A stretch of DNA of 64,000 nucleotides from assembly GCA_963836075.1 (NCBI GenBank), contig CAWIIB010000009.1, positions 1,984,001 to 2,048,000 on the forward strand, read 5' to 3'. The notes below the pieces were generated by a model. It saw only the letters and a list, made by a program, of their open reading frames with translations. It was not told the DNA's origin and made no database searches. The translations under genes were made by a program, and so were the position numbers. This stretch comes from an uncultured Acidobacteriota bacterium (GTDB taxonomy: Bacteria > Acidobacteriota > JAQAZP01). Below, one piece after another: positions 5,267 through 17,519 of this stretch. Every line of letters begins with the position of its first letter. The stretch's first letter is position 1.

Positions 5267-7556
5267 TCAAGGTGTATCGAAAATACCCCCCGCCACCGTC
5301 CCTCCGCAGAGCAGCCCTTGGTCGGCGTAGGCGTCGAACTCGACCACACTCATCGCTTCGGTGTACAGATTGGTGACCCGCCAGGCCGCAACCATGGCCG
5401 GCTCCCGGCTGTCCGGCCCCGGGACGGTGATGATATCGACGATCCCGTCGCCGTGGACGTCGGCGGCGGCCACGCGGACACCGCAGCGGGTGTCGTCATA
5501 CTCGTAGGCGAAGTAGTTCACCTCCGGCATCGCGGTGACCCCGGCGCCGTCATAGTGCCAGCCGCGCACCTGGGCGCCGAAAACGGGGGAGGGGCCCGGG
5601 CCGGTGAGGATCTCATCCCGGCCGTCACCGTCGATGTCGCCGCAGGCCACGTTGACCCCGTATCTCAGGGTGCCGTAGGCGAAGTAGCTGATCCCGGTGA
5701 TCGGCTGTGCCGCTGTACCGTCGATGTTCCAACCACGGACGTGGGGCCCGAACACCGGGCCGGGGCCGGCACCGGTGACGATCTCGTCGATACCGTCGCC
5801 GTCGATGTCGCCGCAGGCTGTGTTGACGCCCCACTTGAGGGTGCCGTAGGCGAAAAAGCTGACCCCGGGGACCGGCTGAACTGCAGCGCCGTCCACGTTC
5901 CAGCCGCGGACGTGGGGCCCGAACACCGCACCGGGCCCGGCGCCGGTGACGATCTCGTCGAACCCGTCACCGTCGATGTCCCCGCAGGCCACGTTCACCC
6001 CGTACCTGTTCGTGCCGTAGGCCAGGTAGCTGACCCCGGGCACCGGCTGGCCAGATGGGCTGAAGCCCCGGACGTGGGGGCCGAAGATGGCGCCCGGGCC
6101 CGGACCGGTGACGATTTCGTCCAGGCCGTTGCCGTCCAGGTCGCCGCAGGCCACGTTGGCTCCCCAGGCCTGGGCCCCGTACGCCGCCCACGATTCGAGC
6201 GGGATCTCGTCGCCCAGCGGATCGAAGCACCTGACCAGCGGCGGATTGATCGCCGCCGGCCCCGGGCCGGTGACCAGGGTCAGCACCGGGTAGTCCAACT
6301 CATCGTAATACGCGTGGAGAAATTCGTCCCAGGCCGTGTCGGCGGGGAAGTCGAGCTCTACCGCTTCGGTACTGCGGGTCGTACAGCCGCCCGCTCCGGG
6401 GAAAGGAAATGCTCAGGCCGCGGGCGTTTTCCTCGATCGACCCATGGCATTCGGCCACCACCGCGGTTTCCATGGCGGTGCGCACCGCCTGGAGGTCGTC
6501 GAGGATCACCGGGTCGTCGGTCAGTCCGGCCAGCTGTTCGGCGAAGTGGTGGACGTCGATCAGGCCGTAACGTTCGGCGCCCCAGAGGCAGAACTCCTGG
6601 GAGCGGTGGCGGGCCAGACGAATCGGATCGACCAGCGTATCGAGGCGGGGGATCAGGTCGGTGGCCAGCTGGTCGATGGCCGCGGCGGCCCCGGCCATTG
6701 CCGAGGTGTCGGTGGCGCTCATGGTCAGGTAGGTGTAGTCCTGATAGTAGTTGTTCTCCCCCACCAGCCGGATGAGCTCCGCCCCCAGCTCCGCGGACGG
6801 AGTGTCCGGCGCGGCAATGAGCGTGTCGCAGAAGCCGTCGAAAATCCCGTTCCAGCGGGCATATCCGCTCAGTTCCTCGCTGCCCACGTAGACCCCCACG
6901 CTCTCCCGCAGTTCGTAGACCGACTCGAAGCAGCCCATCAGGCAGGGGGCGGTGAAACAGAGCAGGTCCACCGGCCCCGCCTCGCCCAGCGCCAGCTGGA
7001 AATCGTTCATGGTCAGGATGTCGTCGCCGTCGGTTTCGTCAACGCAGGCGCCCCGCCAGGCGCCACCATGGTCGTAGCAGGCCAGCAGGTAGCGGTCTGC
7101 CGGGTAGTTTGCCTTCGCGTAGAGCAGGAAATCCCGCAGCGTGTCGGGGTGGCCCATGTTCAACTCGCCGAGGTCGTCCAGCCTGGTCATCTCGTGGTTC
7201 TCACCGATGTGCCAGATGTCGGCTTCCCTGTAATCCCCGTCCCTGAGAACGAGGACGTTGAGATTCGGTCCCGAGTGGGCGTCCCGGGCGAAATCGTTCA
7301 GCGGGTCGTAGGCGTAGTAGAAGTCGGCGTCGTCGTAGAGGAGGATGGTCCAGGTGGTGGCCCCGGGGGAAGGGTTGGGCCGTTCAGGCACTTCCACTGA
7401 CGGGCGGAGTCGGTGGACCGGCCGGTCCTTTGCCTCGAGGACGCGCAGGGAATCGTTCGGCGAGGGGTAGAACCCGCTTCCCCGGATCTCATCCCCCTTG
7501 GCGGTCGGAGGGAGAAGGACGATGGCCAGCAGCAGGACAAAGAGGGTGCGGATCAT
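5267..7556 (-). pseudogene. Clostripain (C11)-like cysteine peptidase plus CTD-B, split by a +1 frameshift at about 6368 (pseudogene or assembly error)
   Basis: Signal peptide; DHGGAW and FTAPCLMG catalytic motifs; removing one base gives YDPQYEAVELDFPADTAWDEFLHAYYDELDY, colinear with the upstream paralog. Confidence 0.85.
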
Positions 7557-9748
7557 TGGAGTGTACCTCCGGCAATGGTTCCCCCGTGATTCAGCCCCAG
7601 GTCGACGTAGGCATCGATCTCGGCCCGGTTGACCGCAATCACGGTACCATTGGACATGCGCCAGGTGAGAACCAGGGCCGGTTCGTCGGGGTCTGGTCCC
7701 GGGACGGTGAGTATCTCGTCGATGCCGTCGCCGTGGATGTCGGCGGAGGCCAGCTGGACACCGTAGCGGGTAAAAGCGAAATAGTAGGCGAGGAAGTTCA
7801 CTTCGGGCATGGGTGAGACCGAGACGCCGTCATAGCGCCAGCCGCGCACGTGGGCGCCGAACCGATTTGACGGCCCCGGTCCGGTGAGGATCTCGTCCCT
7901 GCCGTCTCCATCCAGGTCGCCGCAGGCCACGTTGACTCCCCACCTGTTGGTTCCGTAGGCGAAATAGCTGACGCCGGGGAGCGGTTGGGCCGCAGCACCG
8001 TCCACGTTCCAGCCGCGCACGTGGGGCCCGAACACCGTGCCGGGGCCGGCGCCGGTGACGATCTCGTCAAAGCCGTCGCCGTCCAGGTCGCCGCAGGCCA
8101 CGTTGACCCCCCACTTGAGGGTGCCGTAGGCGAAGTAGCTGACACCGGGGATGGACTGAACTGTCGTGCCATCCACGTTCCAGCCGCGGACGTGGGGGCC
8201 GAAGACCGCGCCGGGTCCGGGTCCGGTGACGATTTCATCGTATCCGTCCCCGTCCAGGTCACCGCAGGCCACGTTGGCGCCATATTTGTTTGTGCCGTAG
8301 GCCAGGTAACTCACCCCCGGGACCGGTTCGCCGGTGGGGCTGAACCCGCGGACGTGGGGGCCGAAGATGGCTCCGGGGCCCGGTCCGGTGACGATCTCGT
8401 CAAAGCCGTCGCCGTCCAGGTCGCCGCAGGCCACGTTGACCCCCCAGGCCTGGACACCATACGCATGAAAATGACCCTGCATGTCGCCGAATTCCACCGG
8501 GTCGAAGGTCCGGACCAGGGGCGGGTTCTCCGCCCCGGGACCGGGTCCGGTGACGATCATCTCCGCCGGCAGGCCCAGGGCGTCGTAGTAGGCGCCCAGG
8601 AACTCGTCCCAGGCGGTGTCGTCGGCAAAATCGAGCTGCACCGATTCATAGGCCGGGTCGTAGAGCGGCCCGCCACGGTGATAATAGACAGAGAGCCCAT
8701 GGGCCCGCGCATGGATTGGCCCGTGGCACTCGGCCACCACGGCGTCGTCGATGGCCGCTTGAACGCTCTCCAGGTCCTGGAGGATCACCGGGTCGCTGGT
8801 CAGGCCGGCGAGCTGATCGCAGTAATCGTGGAGATCCACCATGCCGAGGTGGTCCGCATACTCCTCCCCCATTTCGTGCGACTGGTTGCGGGCCAGCCGG
8901 AGCTCATCGGTGAGTGAACCGAGGCGGGGGATCAGGTCCTGCCCCAGTCTGTCCACGGCCGTGGCAGCCACGGTGGTGGCGCTGGTGTTGACGGCGCTCA
9001 TGGTCAGGCGACGGTGGTCCTCCCAGTAGTCGTTTTCATCCACCAGCCGAATGATGTCCGCCCCGATGCTTGCTGACGAGTCATCCGGGGAGGAAATGAG
9101 CCGGTCACAGATATCGCCCATGATCTCCAGCCAGTAGATGTAGCCGCTCAACTCTTCGCTGCCCACGTAGATGTCGACGCAGTCCCGCAGCTCGTACGCC
9201 GATTCGATGGCGCCCATGTTGCACGGCGCGGTGAAGCAGATCAGGTCCACCCCCCCGGCCGCGGTGAGTGCCAGCTTGAAGTCGTTCATCGAAAGTTTGT
9301 CGTCGCCGTCGGTGTGGTCGCGGCACGCCCCGGACCAGCCTCCGCCGTGACCGTAGGCGGCCAGCAGATGGCGGTCGGCAGGATAGTGTGTCTTGCCCCA
9401 TTCGAGGAAGGAGAGCAGGGTGTCGGGGTGGCCCATGTTCACCTCGCCCCAGTCCTCGAGGTGGGTCAGTTCGTGATTCTGGCCGACGTGCCACAGGTCA
9501 GCCGGTCCCGCATCCCGGTCCCGCAGGACGATCACGTTGAGGTTCGGCCCTGAGTGGGCGTCCAGGGCAAAGGGCTCCAGCGGATCGAAGGCGCTCTCAA
9601 AATCGGCGTTGTCGTAGAAAAAGAGTGTCCAGGTGGTGCCGCCGGGGGATGGTTCAGACGCCGCAGCGGGAGCGCAGACAAGCAGGGCCAGAACCAGGAC
9701 GGCGGTGAGATTCATCCGGCTCAGAAAGCGCGGGGTAAAACGTAGCAT
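7553..9748 (-). CDS. Clostripain (C11)-like cysteine peptidase plus CTD-B (six GPGP/FG-GAP-like repeats)
   Basis: Signal peptide; WTLFFYDNAD, EVNMG, GHGGGW (His) and FTAPCNMG (Cys); DxDGDGxDEI repeats at the C-terminus. Confidence 0.9.
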   Translation of the reverse strand: MLRFTPRFLSRMNLTAVLVLALLVCAPAAASEPSPGGTTWTLFFYDNADFESAFDPLEPFALDAHSGPNLNVIVLRDRDAGPADLWHVGQNHELTHLEDWGEVNMGHPDTLLSFLEWGKTHYPADRHLLAAYGHGGGWSGACRDHTDGDDKLSMNDFKLALTAAGGVDLICFTAPCNMGAIESAYELRDCVDIYVGSEELSGYIYWLEIMGDICDRLISSPDDSSASIGADIIRLVDENDYWEDHRRLTMSAVNTSATTVAATAVDRLGQDLIPRLGSLTDELRLARNQSHEMGEEYADHLGMVDLHDYCDQLAGLTSDPVILQDLESVQAAIDDAVVAECHGPIHARAHGLSVYYHRGGPLYDPAYESVQLDFADDTAWDEFLGAYYDALGLPAEMIVTGPGPGAENPPLVRTFDPVEFGDMQGHFHAYGVQAWGVNVACGDLDGDGFDEIVTGPGPGAIFGPHVRGFSPTGEPVPGVSYLAYGTNKYGANVACGDLDGDGYDEIVTGPGPGAVFGPHVRGWNVDGTTVQSIPGVSYFAYGTLKWGVNVACGDLDGDGFDEIVTGAGPGTVFGPHVRGWNVDGAAAQPLPGVSYFAYGTNRWGVNVACGDLDGDGRDEILTGPGPSNRFGAHVRGWRYDGVSVSPMPEVNFLAYYFAFTRYGVQLASADIHGDGIDEILTVPGPDPDEPALVLTWRMSNGTVIAVNRAEIDAYVDLGLNHGGTIAGGTLQ

Positions 9749-11704: not shown

Positions 11705-14575
11705 GTGAAACTGCTCAGATACAGCTTGCTGGCTCCTGCTCTGTTGATCGTGGCCCTGCTGGCCGGACCGGGTGATCTCCTTCAGGAGATGGCCGCCGGC
11801 GAGCACCGGCTGACCGAAGTCCAGCGGGAAGCGACCCTCCTGGCGCTGGAAGAAAAGCGGGCCCGGCTGGAAGCGCGGAAACTGAAACCGATGGACCAGC
11901 CGCAGGAAGCGGCGGAGTTCTTCCTCCAGCAGCGGTTGGAGCCGGGGCAGGACAAACTGCCGGTGGGGCGGATGCGGGCGGAGCTGGAGGGGATCAAAGC
12001 TCGTGAAGCGGCACTGGCTGGTGAGGACCGGGAAAGGGGACCGGGCGGCATCTCCAGCTGGCAGTCCATCGGGCCGGGCAACATCGGCGGCCGCACCCGC
12101 TCCATCGTCATCGACCCGGACACCCCCGACACGATGTACGCGGGCGGGGTGGCCGGCGGGATCTGGAAGTCCACCGATGCCGGGGCCAGCTGGAACGCGG
12201 CCGACGACCTGATGCTCAACCTCAGGGTCTGCGCCCTGGCCATCGACCCCACCAATACCAGTGTGCTCTATGCCGGCACCGGTGAGGGTGTGTTCAGCGG
12301 CAGTGGCACCGGAGGCCTGGGCATCTTCAAGTCCACGGATGCCGGGGCCAGCTGGAACCAGTTGGCCGGGACGGTGAGCGGCGTGCCCGAGGGTGCGTTC
12401 AATTTTGTCAACGAGATCGTGATCAGTCCCAATGACTCCAGCCGCCTCTACGCCGCCACCCGCACCGGGGTCTGGCGCAGCACCGATGCCGGGGAGAACT
12501 GGTCCCACCTGCTGGGCAACCCGCGGCATCTCTCGGGCCCGTACAACTCCAACGGGTGTGTGGTGGGCTGCAGCGACCTGGCCGTGCGCAGCGACCGCAA
12601 CCCGGACACGCTCTTTTCCGCCTTCGGCATCTACGAGTCGGACGGGCTCTACCTCTCCGAGGACGGCGGCGACTCCTGGATCGGTTACACCACCGGGCCG
12701 GAGCAGGGCCGGATGGAGATCGCCATCGCGCCGAGCAACAACGACGTGATCTACCTCACCATGGCCGACAACGGCACCGCTGTCCAACTGGGGCGGCTGA
12801 TCAGTGTCTTCCGCGCCGACGACGGCCTGAACTTCAGCGCGGTACTCGACCTGGAACACCCCTTCAGCCCCTGGCTGTTCAGTTACCTGGCCATCGCCAC
12901 CGGCTGCTACGAGCACCCGACAATTTACTCCCAGGGATGGCACGACAATGTCATTGCGGTGGATCCGATCAACCCGGAGATCGTCTGGGTGGGCGGTATC
13001 GACCTGTTCCGTTCAGATGACGGCGGCCAGACCTTTGGCCTGGCCAGCTACTGGTTCTACTTCCTCTGGGATCCCCAGCCCGCCACCTATGTGCACGTGG
13101 ACCAGCACGAGATCGTCTTCCATCCCGGATACAACGGCCTCAGCAACCAGATCATGTATGTGGGCAACGACGGCGGCGTGTGGCGCACGGCCAACGCCCG
13201 GGCCGCCACCACCGAGGAGGAGTGCCCCATCGGTCCGGACCCCGGCCCGCCGCCGGAGATCGTCTGGGAGAACATGAACAACGGCTACGGGGTGACCCAG
13301 TTCTACCACGGCGATGCCGCCCTGACAGCCGACCGCTTTGTGGGTGGTGCCCAGGACAATGGTTCGGCCCAGGTGCTGTCTGCCGGGACCCCGGACAGCT
13401 GGGAATACGTGTACAGCGGCGATGGCGGGTACGTGGCCATCGACCCGCGGGACGACCGGCACTACTTCGTCGAGATCCAGGGCTTTCCCACAATCGCCGA
13501 AACCAACAACGGCGGTATCTCATTCAGTCCAGCGGTAAACGGTATCACCGACACCGACGGCATCTTCATCAACCCCTTTGCCATGGACCAGTCCAATCCC
13601 GACGTCATCTGGACCGGCGGCCGCCGCCCCTGGCGCACCATCGATGGCGCCGGCCTGTGGGAGCTGGCCGGGCCCAATTTCAGCGGTGCGGACAGACTTA
13701 CGGCCATCAATATTTCCCCGGCGGACAGCAACGTGGTCTGGTTCGGCTTCAACAACGGTTATGTGGCCCGGACCACCAACGGTCTGGCCGAGAAGCCGGA
13801 CTTCGAGGTCTTTGCCAACGGCCTGCCGGGCGGGTGGATCAGCAGCGTGGCCGCCGACCCGGTGGACACCGAAACGGCTTACTGCACGATCTCCTCATAT
13901 GGCGTGCCCCACGTGATGAAGACCACTGACGGAGGCAGCAACTGGGCCTCCATCGACGGCATCTCGGTCACCGGCGTGCCCGACATCCCGGTGCACTGGA
14001 TCGCCGTCCGTCCCGGCAACCCGCAACAGCTCTACGTGGGCACCGAGTTCGGCGTCTTTGCCAGCGACGATGGCGGGGGAACCTGGTTCCCGGCCAACAC
14101 AGGGCTGGCCCACACCATCGTGGAATCTCTCGACTGGAAGGATCCGGACACTCTGGTGGCCTTCACCCATGGCCGCGGGGCCTACGTCACCCACCTGGAT
14201 AGCATCGCCACCATCGATGCGGCCCTGGTCTGTGAGCCCTCCACCGGCACCCTGCCCTTTGTCACCCAGCTGTGGGTCACCCTGGGCAATCTCTACGCCG
14301 GGCAGACCCGGCGGGTGGCCGCCCGTCTGGATGTGCAACTGGCCGCGGGTGCCTACTTTCCGGGATGGCGCGCGGGATACACCAACATCGGTCCCGGGGG
14401 CAGCTATTTCACCTCCTGGAACCAGAACCTCCCGGCCCTGGGTACACTGGTGGGAGAGAACGTCTTCACCCTGGCTGCCGAGGACGTGACGCCGTCACCC
14501 TACAATCAGCCGCCCTATCCGCCGGCCGGGGATACCTGCACTTCGCAGCAGATTTTCACTGCTCTGGCGCCCTAA
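11705..14575 (+). CDS. Secreted BNR/Asp-box (VPS10/GH74-like) double propeller protein plus CTD-A
   Basis: Signal-like N-terminus; many SxDxGxxW Asp-boxes; GPGNIGGR, HVDQH, GAQDNG and THGRG motifs; terminal 120-aa CTD-A. Confidence 0.88.
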   Translation: MKLLRYSLLAPALLIVALLAGPGDLLQEMAAGEHRLTEVQREATLLALEEKRARLEARKLKPMDQPQEAAEFFLQQRLEPGQDKLPVGRMRAELEGIKAREAALAGEDRERGPGGISSWQSIGPGNIGGRTRSIVIDPDTPDTMYAGGVAGGIWKSTDAGASWNAADDLMLNLRVCALAIDPTNTSVLYAGTGEGVFSGSGTGGLGIFKSTDAGASWNQLAGTVSGVPEGAFNFVNEIVISPNDSSRLYAATRTGVWRSTDAGENWSHLLGNPRHLSGPYNSNGCVVGCSDLAVRSDRNPDTLFSAFGIYESDGLYLSEDGGDSWIGYTTGPEQGRMEIAIAPSNNDVIYLTMADNGTAVQLGRLISVFRADDGLNFSAVLDLEHPFSPWLFSYLAIATGCYEHPTIYSQGWHDNVIAVDPINPEIVWVGGIDLFRSDDGGQTFGLASYWFYFLWDPQPATYVHVDQHEIVFHPGYNGLSNQIMYVGNDGGVWRTANARAATTEEECPIGPDPGPPPEIVWENMNNGYGVTQFYHGDAALTADRFVGGAQDNGSAQVLSAGTPDSWEYVYSGDGGYVAIDPRDDRHYFVEIQGFPTIAETNNGGISFSPAVNGITDTDGIFINPFAMDQSNPDVIWTGGRRPWRTIDGAGLWELAGPNFSGADRLTAINISPADSNVVWFGFNNGYVARTTNGLAEKPDFEVFANGLPGGWISSVAADPVDTETAYCTISSYGVPHVMKTTDGGSNWASIDGISVTGVPDIPVHWIAVRPGNPQQLYVGTEFGVFASDDGGGTWFPANTGLAHTIVESLDWKDPDTLVAFTHGRGAYVTHLDSIATIDAALVCEPSTGTLPFVTQLWVTLGNLYAGQTRRVAARLDVQLAAGAYFPGWRAGYTNIGPGGSYFTSWNQNLPALGTLVGENVFTLAAEDVTPSPYNQPPYPPAGDTCTSQQIFTALAP

Positions 14576-14709: not shown

Positions 14710-15540
14710 ATGGCTGAAAACGACCTCCTCGGAAGATTGGTGAGCAGCGTCATGAGCGAGCGCCAGGCCAAGGTGTACCTGGCGCTGCTTCAGCGTGGCC
14801 GTGCCACGTCCGCCGAACTCCAGCGCGACTCCGGTATATCCCAAACCAAAATCTACGAAACCGTCCGTTTCCTGGTCAGCCGCGGATTCTGCCGCGAGCA
14901 GAAGATCGGCAACCGGCGGGTCTACGAAGCGGTGGACCCCGGGGCTGCCCTGAAGACTGAAGAGGGCCAGCTCCAGGAGCGGATCAAGGAAATCAGCCTG
15001 CTGGCCGGTGACCTCTCGCACCTCTACTCAGCCGCGGACAAGGCGGCCACCCCCATCGAGTTTATCGAGCTTCTCAACGGCACGGAGAGCATCCACCGCC
15101 ACTACTGTGACCTGGTGCGCGGCTCCAGCGGGGAGCTGCTCGGTTTCGGGCGGCCGCCCTACGCCTGCAACACCAACTCCAAGGTCAAGGAACAGCTGCG
15201 GGCCTACAAACGGTTCATCAACGGCAAGGGCAGCTCGCGCTGGGTCTTTGAAATCGACATTCCGGAGAACAAGGTGGCGGTGTCCGCGGTGCAGCAGATG
15301 CACGACCTGGGCATCGACATCTGCGTTTCCGCGTCCCTGCCGTTAAAGATGATGGTCTTCGACAGCAGCACGGTGCTCTTTGCCCAGGAGGGTTCGCTGA
15401 TGAAGCCGGGCGAGCTGACCATGGCCAGCATCCGCAACGGCGCCATCGCCAACGCCTTTTCGGCACTGTTCGAGTATTTCTGGCAAACCTCCATTCCCTA
15501 CGAGGAGTGGTTGAAGAGGGCGCCCCAGGAGGGGCATTAG
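14710..15540 (+). CDS. TrmB family transcriptional regulator
   Basis: AKVYLALL…SGISQTKIYETV..LVSRG winged HTH, coiled coil, and PLD-like effector domain (KMMVFD). Confidence 0.88.
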   Translation: MAENDLLGRLVSSVMSERQAKVYLALLQRGRATSAELQRDSGISQTKIYETVRFLVSRGFCREQKIGNRRVYEAVDPGAALKTEEGQLQERIKEISLLAGDLSHLYSAADKAATPIEFIELLNGTESIHRHYCDLVRGSSGELLGFGRPPYACNTNSKVKEQLRAYKRFINGKGSSRWVFEIDIPENKVAVSAVQQMHDLGIDICVSASLPLKMMVFDSSTVLFAQEGSLMKPGELTMASIRNGAIANAFSALFEYFWQTSIPYEEWLKRAPQEGH

Positions 15541-15661
15541 AGGCGAAAATCGTGACACCTGATCTCCTGCGGTGGGGGACCGGTGAGTAAATGGTTCCGC
15601 CGCGAGTTTCTTAACCTGCGACACCGCGAGAGTGCGGTGCGCGAAAAGAGGAGGGAATCGA

Positions 15662-17410
15662 ATGGCAAGGTGGCTGTGCATCAAGCTGCCGTCGGTGATT
15701 CTCCTGTCCCTGCTGCTGGTGGTTGCCTCGGTGTTTTCCGGGGCAGCATTTGCGGCGGAGGATCTGGAGATCATCCAGGCGGTGAAGAACGGTACCCCCG
15801 TTTCGGGGGGCAATCGGGTGGTCATGGGCGAGGTGTTCGCCCGCGACGGCTGAGCGTACTGTCCCTCTGCGGAGCAGGGGATGATAGACCTCTTGGCCAA
15901 CTTCGGTGACGACGAATTCGTCTGTGTCATGTACTACTCCACCAGCGGCTGGTCCTGCCCGGAGCACGGCGACCGTGCCGGTCTCTACGGTGTGAGCGGT
16001 GTGCCCGACGCTTATTTCAGCGGTTATCTTAACTCTCTCGGCGGGCTGCCCAGTGGCTCGATGTATGACTACTACCTGCCCCTGGTGAACCAGGTCATGG
16101 CCAATCCCGGTATGTTGGCAATGTCACTGGACATGACCATCGATGCCGGTACCATCACCGTCAACGGCACCATCGAGGCCCTGGAAAACGCCCCCGATGC
16201 CCTCGTCTACGTCGTGGTCTACGAAGAGGACTCGGGCCGTGAGCCGAACCTGGCCCGTGGCTTCCCGGTGTGGGAGACCATGCTCACCGCCACCACCACC
16301 GGCGCGACCCAGGACATCAGCGGCACCCTGGCCGTGGGCACCGGCTGGAACGAGGCCAACCTCCACGCCATCATGTTTGTCCAGGCCCTGCAGGACTTCA
16401 CGGCCACCCGGATCGTCACCGGTCCCGGCCCCGGCCCGGACAACGTCTGCCGCCTGGCCGCCTGGGTCCCGGAGAATCCAGGCACTGCCGACGTGACCAT
16501 CAACGCATACGGCGTGGACAAATACGGCGTCAACGTGGCCGTGGGCGACCTCACCGGCGATGGCTTTGACGAATTCCTCACCGGTCCCGGACCGGGCGCG
16601 GTCTTCGGCCCGCAGGTGCGCGGTTTCAACTACGAAGGCGACCAGCTCCCCGGCCTCAGCTATTTTGCCTATGGCACCCTGAAATACGGGGTCAACGTGG
16701 CTGCCGGCGACTTGGACAATGACGGTGTGGCCGAGATCCTCACCGGCGCCGGACCGGGCGCGGTCTTCGGCCCCCACGTTCGCGCCTGGAAGTACAACGG
16801 CAGTGAGGTGAGTTCCATGCCGGGGATCAGTTACTTCGCCTACGGCACACCAAAGTATGGTGTAAACGTGGTCTGCGGTGACATCGACGGCGACGGTTTT
16901 GACGAGATCATCACCGGTGCCGGACCGGGCGCGGTCTACGGCCCGCACGTGCGCGGCTGGAACTACGACAATGACACCCTCACCTCGATTCCCAGTGTGA
17001 GCTTCCTGGCTTACAACACCAACAAGTTCGGCGTAAACGTGGCCTGCGGTGACATCGACGGTGACGGGATGGACGAGTTGATCACCGGTGCCGGCCCCGG
17101 CGCGGTCTTCGGGCCGCACCTCCGTGGCTGGAACATCGACGGCGGTACGGTCACGGCCATTTCCGGAATCAACACCATGGCCTTCGACTACACCGAGTGG
17201 GGTATCAATGTTGGTTGTGGAGACGTGGACCGTGACGGCATGGACGAGATCTTTGTCGGTGCCGGTCCCGGCGAGGCCCACGACGCCTGGGTCCGCGGCT
17301 TCAACTATGACGGCGGCACGCTGGAGATGGTGTATGACTTCACCGCCTACGGCGCCCCGGTCATCACCCACGGTGTCAACGTGACCTGTGGCTACTTCTT
17401 CGCCCCGTAA
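15662..17410 (+). CDS. Secreted Omp28/thioredoxin-like selenoprotein (UxxC) plus CTD-B
   Basis: ORFs 15632-15853 and 15881-17410 share a frame; TGA 15851-15853 reads VVMGEVFARDG-U-AYCP; signal peptide in the first half; YGVSGVP cis-Pro loop; SECIS-like hairpin follows the TGA. Confidence 0.85.
15862..15881 (+). promoter_or_regulatory. Candidate bacterial SECIS element
   Basis: TCCC(T)CTGC-GGA-GCAGGGGA hairpin with a bulged U and a G-first apical loop 17 nt after the UGA. Confidence 0.7.
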
Positions 17411-17445
17411 CGTAAACGTCGTCGGTACTGCTACCGGCTAACCAG

Positions 17446-17483
17446 CGGCGGGTGGGCCCCTTCGGGTCCACCCGCCGTTTTTT
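17446..17483 (+). terminator. Intrinsic terminator
   Basis: CGGCGGGTGGGCCC-loop-GGGTCCACCCGCCG followed by T6. Confidence 0.85.
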
Positions 17484-17519
17484 CTGAAGGCAATCGCTGC
17501 CTGTCGCCATTTTCTGCAC

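Follow-up and report, generated by a model that had tools for sequence, protein, structure and literature searches.

Within a stretch of 64,000 nucleotides from the genome of an uncultured Acidobacteriota bacterium (hereafter, the window), positions 15662-17410 constitute one conventional selenoprotein gene, a real gene that has been split in two by gene callers at an in-frame TGA codon. The best explanation, to which we assign a probability of roughly 0.87, is that this gene encodes an exported selenoprotein consisting of a thioredoxin fold, a beta-sandwich and a beta-propeller; UGA 15851 very probably encodes selenocysteine (Sec, U). The analyses described below establish the single frame, the pairing of Sec with Cys, the Sec machinery, the fold and the domain order. 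The initial annotation of the window proposed a hidden, signal-peptide-bearing selenoprotein with a UxxC motif in an Omp28/thioredoxin-like domain; this core proposal is supported, and no attempt to refute it succeeded.

A single reading frame across the TGA codon

The frame opened by ATG 15662, which begins with a signal peptide, runs for 189 nt (63 codons) to the in-frame TGA 15851-15853. Past this codon, it reads GCG TAC TGT CCC (A-Y-C-P-S-A-E-Q-G-M...) and then, from ATG 15881, becomes the open reading frame (ORF) of 509 amino acids (aa) that ends with TAA 17408-17410. Because the frame of ATG 15662 remains in phase across TGA all the way to this TAA, the original observation that the signal-peptide ORF stops at TGA 15851 yet continues into the 509-aa ORF is correct. 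When TGA is translated as U, the product is 582 aa long and contains the site RVVMGEVFARDG-U64-AYC67P (GEVFARDG-U64-AYC67-P). The N-terminal coding region, MARWLCIKLPSVILLSLLLVVASVFSGAAFA/AEDLE..., as read from the sequence, specifies a basic n-region, a hydrophobic core and an AFA cleavage-type motif.

The 509-aa downstream ORF begins at M74, past UxxC; as proposed in the initial annotation, on its own it has neither a signal peptide nor a redox motif. No promoter-like or terminator-like site was found between TGA 15851 and ATG 15881. All nine database relatives found in a word-based protein search are 502-516 aa long, start past the TGA and are either unnamed or denoted 'hypothetical protein'.

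Alternation of TGA and Cys codons at one aligned position

A search of the genome with residues 1-253 of the protein yielded five places (100, 54, 36, 27 and 26% identity), with exactly one TGA inside each match and a signal peptide ahead of all five. In each of the five copies, the TGA is located at a common xLxExFxxxxUxxCP site (GEVFARDGUAYCPSA, AELFSRDGUAYCPSA, GELFSRTSUPYCPSA, GELFTATWUPNCPSA and ELGTATWUGYCPRA). The four paralogs outside the window (Table 1) have presumably been mis-called as truncated ORFs as well.

Among 61 related genomes, eight contained matches, at 23 loci, of which 19 carry TGA at the aligned position and four carry a Cys codon (CQYCP, CGYCP and, twice, CGPCV). One TGA copy, L057 (G001:C267:31088-31351), was excluded from the alignments; it keeps the UxxC TGA, loses similarity after approximately 75 residues, contains a second TGA, and is probably a decayed or frameshifted paralog. 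A search with an 8-row alignment returned seven loci, all in two assemblies that were already represented. Across 301 genomes of the phylum, 39 had a match at E<=1e-12, and the 58 matches included 21 with one TGA and 37 without TGA, one of the latter from the unpublished genome G048. TGA-bearing Omp28-like genes are also present in other families of the phylum, namely, L077 (G290:C79:10362-10997), which reads FTSTN-U-PNCP and is followed by a 6-bp hairpin 22 nt past the UGA, and G164:C8:126940-127482. The occurrence of such genes in other families suggests several independent Sec lineages.

A profile built from 22 sequences (alignment A3) was then compared with 1.84 billion representative proteins, resulting in 14,613 matches at E<=1e-3 and 579 at E<=1e-30. 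In the aligned columns of 167 domains from the best 149 proteins, the motif is CxxC in 159, SxxC in two and CxxV in one, and the remaining five domains start past the motif. The consensus across the 167 aligned domains, RRVVLAEIFTGTWCPYCPGAAMG, bears out the claim that the site corresponds to the Omp28/thioredoxin active-site motif. The invariant columns of A3 are E14, U/C (C21), the second C (C24), A27, R62, Y66, the Pro of the GxP loop (P72) and G78. Homologues with Cys opposite the UGA, the existence of which the initial annotation treated as decisive, are therefore found at three levels: four of the 23 related loci, 159 of the 167 library domains and 24 Cys loci in the phylum. The alternation of TGA and Cys at one column is the classic Sec/Cys signature.

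Selenocysteine machinery and the use of TGA

The host assembly (6.23 Mb in 10 contigs, 94.7% complete, 4.6% contaminated) encodes selA, selB, tRNA-Sec (selC) and selD, all scoring above curated cut-offs, and thus contains the entire set of genes on which the selenoprotein proposal depended. The tRNA-Sec (74.7 bits; cut-off, 47) has the anticodon TCA (ARAGORN); selA (562.8 bits) and selB (365.7 bits) are both located on contig C9, the same contig as the window. There are two selD genes (348.5 and 345.8 bits), at C4:17381-18301 and C9:892330-893256, each with one in-frame TGA, such that SelD itself is apparently a selenoprotein, and a duplicated one. The genome is equipped to insert selenocysteine. 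Paralogs of the 582-aa protein terminate at TGA where this protein terminates at TAA; given that TGA closes these genes at the homologous C-terminus, it also serves as an ordinary stop codon and is not reassigned.

The codon in independent samples

Contigs from four sequencing runs, belonging to four studies, span 15851-15853 and show no listed difference there, 28 further differences in the run contigs lying outside those listed; thus, the initial concern that other data might read TGC or TGG at 15851 finds no listed change in its favour. For runs X2 and X20, the per-kind tallies place every A change among the listed positions, so that A15853 stands and TGC, TGT and TGG are excluded in these runs. 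By their labels, the runs containing the stretch come from sediment, salt-marsh and estuary metagenomes.

An RNA-library contig of 376 nt, which does not prove transcription, covers 15679-16045 with 27 differences. Downstream of the TGA, all eight differences are at third codon positions; upstream, seven of the 18 are, and the others are in the signal peptide or in a variable linker (15794-15812). This distribution fits purifying selection in one frame on either side of the codon.

The hairpin after the UGA

The UGA is followed by a hairpin that resembles a bacterial selenocysteine insertion sequence (SECIS), with an upper stem of 7 bp, a GGA loop starting 17 nt past the UGA, and a 5-bp lower stem set off by a bulge of two nucleotides, A-U, on the 3' side. 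The structure reported in the initial annotation is thus present, with the loop at the position given; the bulge, described there as a single bulged U, turned out to consist of two nucleotides. An 81-nt fold of the region has a minimum free energy of -30.5 kcal/mol (z = -2.1; 5 of 200 shuffles were equally stable). Folding energy was nevertheless dropped as a SECIS test because the stability is no greater than elsewhere in the same GC-rich genes.

Shape and position were more informative. The criterion required at least six contiguous pairs, a loop of 3-6 nt with G in the first two bases, and a loop start 14-26 nt past the codon; it is patterned on the consensus parameters of bacterial SECIS elements in bSECISearch. 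In the first set of loci, it selected 15 of 18 Sec loci, none of four Cys loci and 678 of 8570 background codon positions (7.9%). In a second set (29 loci, the G048 locus having been left out of 30), the sole new Sec locus passed, as did two of 24 Cys loci. Over the combined distinct loci, the counts are 16 of 19 for Sec and two of 24 for Cys; they are not translated into a formal probability because the Sec loci are mutually related. A single consensus structure over the 19 Sec sequences was tried and rejected, as the stems of the subgroups differ and lie in slightly shifted registers. Because these registers are offset by 1-8 nt among the subgroups, covariation was counted only in the main group of 10 sequences, where it is seen in one of seven stem pairs (U-A in six sequences, C-G in four), through a synonymous Ser change and a Gln-to-Arg change. 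The shape and position of the hairpin discriminate Sec from Cys loci; its energy does not. The hairpin is, accordingly, a candidate bacterial SECIS: its shape and position, judged by a criterion fixed after the data had been seen, exceed chance, and its energy is not above background.

Domain architecture and predicted function

An AlphaFold2 (AF2) model of residues 44-253 (predicted local distance difference test score, pLDDT, 83.9; predicted template modelling score, pTM, 0.85) has a thioredoxin topology followed by a six-strand sandwich. The modelled order of the thioredoxin part is strand, U/CxxC, helix, strand, helix, two strands, helix, with UxxC at the N-terminus of helix 1. In the full-length model (pLDDT 85.4), 24 added strands form a six-bladed propeller that matches FG-GAP-type and Kelch propellers. 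Foldseek aligned the model with Atu2684 (2axo, 4.6e-7), HBP35 (5y1a, 6.9e-7; query template modelling score, TMq, 0.70) and Omp28 (2r2c, 2.1e-4; target score, TMt, 0.63), and a profile search of the PDB placed the site opposite CPYC of the thioredoxins 1nho and 1fo5. The topology, CxxC-type motif and conserved Pro loop that define a thioredoxin fold are all present, the cis-Pro position being taken from conservation. As modelled, the protein combines a thioredoxin domain with an Omp28-like beta-sandwich and is nearest to HBP35 of Porphyromonas gingivalis.

Among Pfam families, only FG-GAP scores above the cut-off (PF13517, 58.3 bits; PF01839, 51.8 bits). The best NCBIfam match, NF045500, aligns residues 45-244 of the protein with profile positions 32-256, and the Omp28 lipoprotein subfamily NF033782 scores 23.6 bits against a cut-off of 150. 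No match to Por_Secre_tail, the C-terminal sorting domain of the type IX secretion system (T9SS), was obtained at E<=1 in Pfam or NCBIfam. Of 10 Cys homologues from elsewhere, seven pass the Pfam Omp28 cut-off, and all 10 match NF045500 below its cut-off, with a maximum of 142 bits; their C-termini are T9SS tails, dockerins or BACON domains.

Under the proposed mechanism, SelB and tRNA-Sec would decode UGA 15851 as selenocysteine, aided by the small downstream hairpin, and a signal peptide of the Sec secretory type (aa 1-31) would carry the chain through the inner membrane. U64 would take the place of the first, attacking Cys of CxxC (U64-A-Y-C67), and the mature protein would most likely be an extracytoplasmic thiol/disulfide (selenylsulfide) oxidoreductase, a function that we predict with moderate confidence. 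The propeller may be a lineage-specific anchoring or targeting module. The redox direction, the substrates and the role of the propeller are inferred.

Relationship to known selenoproteins and Omp28-like proteins

According to a single table in a 2026 review (PMC13188914), on which the identification rests, NF045500 corresponds to 'Hypothetical protein GOS_C', a UxxC-motif family after Zhang and Gladyshev 2008; the comparison with GOS_C was made via the profile and the published description. In the part of the original report that describes it (PMC2398784), GOS_C comprises 74 Sec sequences and 312 Cys homologues, with a thioredoxin-like fold and a function not known there. The protein analysed here shares with NF045500/GOS_C a UxxC Sec site in a thioredoxin-like fold followed by an Omp28-like domain, as well as the existence of many Cys homologues. 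It differs in sequence (41.4 bits against a cut-off of 200, with none of the five paralogs, at 34.8-50.3 bits in a six-frame genome search, past the cut-off), in its C-terminus (an FG-GAP propeller or, in two paralogs, a lineage-specific domain of approximately 120 aa) and in its source (sediment metagenome-assembled genomes labelled as Acidobacteriota, as opposed to ocean-surface reads). Given these profile scores, the five paralogs form a separate clade.

Like HBP35 (5y1a), the selenoprotein would be an exported thioredoxin plus beta-sandwich with an added C-terminal surface-attachment domain, CxxC-dependent thioredoxin activity being that of HBP35. HBP35, however, has Cys rather than Sec, ends in a T9SS C-terminal domain without a propeller, and is only 13% identical in sequence. 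In the sections of the HBP35 study used here (PMC2907840), this protein reduces insulin disulfides, an activity lost in the C48S/C51S mutant, and also binds hemin and supports growth under hemin scarcity. With the Omp28 lipoproteins (PF11551, NF033782, 2r2c), the common feature is the beta-sandwich, which matches 2r2c; in contrast to these, the 582-aa protein falls below both family cut-offs, lacks a lipobox and has Sec for Cys. The active-site stretch FTxxxCPYCPxA of the archaeal proteins 1nho and 1fo5 aligns residue for residue, and Atu2684 (DUF1223, 2axo) has the same arrangement of thioredoxin and sandwich; all three, however, are Cys proteins whose matched chains show no signal peptide or propeller, and the matches are weakly significant (E ~1e-6). 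A literature search found no paper joining 'Omp28' with 'selenoprotein', nor the phrase 'Omp28-related selenoprotein'. Altogether, the protein is a diverged, multi-copy addition to the already known Omp28-related/GOS_C selenoproteins, in which the fusion with a propeller is new.

Two C-terminal modules

The C-terminal region denoted 'CTD-B' in the initial annotation turned out to be a six-bladed FG-GAP propeller of approximately 330 aa rather than a short sorting tail; the module, at 16421-17407 in the window, has 192 matches in the genome. The 329-aa module shares 57% identity with the C-terminus of the clostripain-family (C11) protease encoded at 7553-9748. Its genome matches (E<=1e-10, 50-69% identity) are in ORFs of approximately 350-2000 aa with varied N-terminal domains, and the module appears to represent a very large lineage-specific expansion. 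A second module of approximately 120 aa (14213-14572) forms the C-terminus of the BNR protein 11705-14575, ends in ...NQPPY...AP-stop, and is matched at least 150 times in the genome (150 scored of 243 candidates). Two of the Sec paralogs, C1:1061944 and C9:2706025, terminate in the same module. We found no NCBIfam name for either module, and no Pfam match for the ~120-aa one, which looks like a sorting or anchor domain. Because the five Sec paralogs bear one of these two lineage-specific tails where the Bacteroidota homologues bear a T9SS domain, an anchoring or sorting role for the tails is plausible by analogy.

Upstream of the selenoprotein gene, on the same strand, a gene for a TrmB-family helix-turn-helix regulator (14710-15540, plus strand) ends 121 nt before its start and might encode a local regulator.

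Weighing the alternatives

Several observations weigh against the interpretation of the gene as encoding an exported Omp28-like selenoprotein. Most concern the hairpin: the folding energy of the 45 nt past the codon ranks at only 0.29-0.64 of the same-gene background for the Sec loci; greater stability is seen at the equivalent place in two Cys homologues; the shape criterion was set post hoc, after the data had been seen, and is failed by three of the 19 Sec loci; and an Rfam scan of 15750-16000 at E<=10 returned two chance-level matches and no SECIS family. The family profiles are a further point, with Pfam Omp28 (PF11551) at 12.5 bits (E 0.13) against a gathering threshold of 34.9, and NF045500 at 41.4 bits (E 1.2e-10) against 200. 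In addition, for two of the four runs, the conclusion that 15851-15853 is unchanged is not fully secure; we infer selenium insertion at U64 from sequence, and the full-length product is a prediction; and GGAG 15871-15874, located 6 nt before ATG 15881, allows separate initiation there.

The last observation would suit two genes, with UGA 15851 as the true stop of a 63-aa exported peptide and a 509-aa FG-GAP protein starting separately at ATG 15881, which is what gene callers report here and in all nine database relatives. We consider this arrangement very improbable because in 19 loci the protein sequence is conserved on both sides of the TGA and can be aligned with CxxC proteins that have no interruption, Met is found at position 74 in just two of the 22 aligned sequences, and a protein starting at ATG 15881 would be deprived of the signal peptide, the active site, strand 1 of the thioredoxin fold and the beginning of its helix 1. 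That the codon is a nonsense mutation of a former Cys codon in a pseudogene, or an assembly error, is hardly conceivable: TGA is indeed one base away from TGC and TGT, and the related copy L057 looks decayed, but the same TGA recurs in the five paralogs, in two further assemblies from this genus, in additional families of the phylum and in contigs of independent runs, and the downstream differences concentrate at third codon positions, indicating purifying selection. Readthrough of UGA without Sec, through near-cognate Trp or Cys insertion or reassignment of the codon, would draw on the fact that the residue at U64 is assigned from sequence; it is extremely improbable given that TGA terminates paralogs at the homologous C-terminus, that the aligned residue is Cys in 159 of the 167 domains, that the Sec machinery is complete, and that the hairpin goes with TGA forms rather than with Cys forms. 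With decoding of UGA 15851 as Sec retained, two alternatives concern what the protein does. A role mainly in heme or metal binding, or in peroxide, selenium or metalloid chemistry rather than in general disulfide exchange, is suggested by the hemin binding and hemin-poor growth of the best structural match, HBP35, and by the lack of a function for GOS_C in the description cited above; we regard it as unlikely, since the residues that do not vary are those of thioredoxin-type oxidoreductases, namely, the UxxC/CxxC pair and the cis-Pro loop, and the thioredoxin activity of HBP35 requires its two Cys.

The other is the role proposed in the initial annotation, display alongside the neighbouring C11 cysteine proteases, keeping them reduced or opening the disulfides of their substrates. 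Two of the three C11-like places in the genome, the adjacent genes 6300-7556 and 7553-9748 (both on the minus strand), are indeed 6-8 kb upstream of the selenoprotein gene, the second is fused to the same propeller module, and there is a 36-residue C11-like match approximately 9 kb from the ortholog in the related genome G002. These genes are, however, on the opposite strand, with phytase, BNR and TrmB genes lying in between; over 500 kb separates each of the other four paralogs from the nearest C11 gene, so that proximity holds for one of the five; and no C11 match was found in the related genome G001, which is 91% complete. With 192 matches in the genome, sharing of the propeller is not specific either. 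What was offered as co-display thus comes down to adjacency of one copy, and we consider service to the C11 proteases decidedly unlikely and place low confidence in any specific role with them.

Table 1. Features of the selenoprotein gene and its paralogs
Feature	Position	Strand	Basis
Shine-Dalgarno-like AGGAGGG	15649..15655	+	Read from sequence; 6 nt ahead of ATG 15662
Full selenoprotein coding sequence, 582 aa with U64	15662..17410	+	Frame kept on both sides of TGA in paralogs and orthologs
Predicted signal peptide, aa 1-31 (MARWLCIK / hydrophobic core / AFA, then AE)	15662..15754	+	Sequence reading; low-confidence modelled N-terminal helix 11-26
Thioredoxin-fold domain, aa 52-146	15815..16099	+	AF2 models; PDB profile matches 1nho and 1fo5 with CPYC aligned
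UGA as selenocysteine U64, first position of UxxC	15851..15853	+	Frame, paralogs, related loci, Cys homologues
SECIS-like hairpin: lower stem 15859-15863/15883-15887, upper stem 15864-15870/15874-15880, loop GGA 15871-15873	15859..15887	+	
TGT, Cys67, resolving residue of UxxC	15860..15862	+	Invariant column C24 in alignment A3
Omp28-like beta-sandwich, aa 150-243	16109..16390	+	AF2 model; Foldseek 2r2c (Omp28 domain), 5y1a (HBP35)
Six-bladed FG-GAP beta-propeller, aa 247-582 ('CTD-B')	16400..17407	+	Pfam FG-GAP_3 and FG-GAP; 24 modelled strands; propeller matches
Terminator-like hairpin (intrinsic type, 16 pairs) followed by T run	17444..17485	+	Begins 34 nt past the stop codon
Four further Omp28-like UxxCP genes with in-frame TGA (outside the window)	C1:679365-680042; C1:1061944-1062546; C9:2706025-2706615; C9:3141578-3142138	-; +; -; +	

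Implications

Recognition of the full gene corrects a systematic annotation error, in that every database copy found is a fragment lacking both active site and signal peptide; four further genes in this genome, and their orthologs, are presumably affected by the same mis-calling. It leaves the understanding of Sec decoding and of thioredoxin-fold catalysis unchanged. The scale of the two C-terminal modules is the more unusual feature and a separate lead. One rather speculative possibility, which we consider quite unlikely as stated, is that the genus has its own protein-display system, in which the two modules tag hundreds of exoproteins and the five Sec-dependent Omp28-like oxidoreductases, which carry the same tags, would act as its redox arm outside the cell, where they might activate or protect thiol enzymes such as the C11 proteases in anoxic sediment. 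For the family itself, the gene and its paralogs bring a new clade into the GOS_C/Omp28-related selenoproteins, along with a habitat label (sediment) and an architecture, the propeller fusion, that are also new, and add a multi-copy example of the use of Sec in exported proteins.

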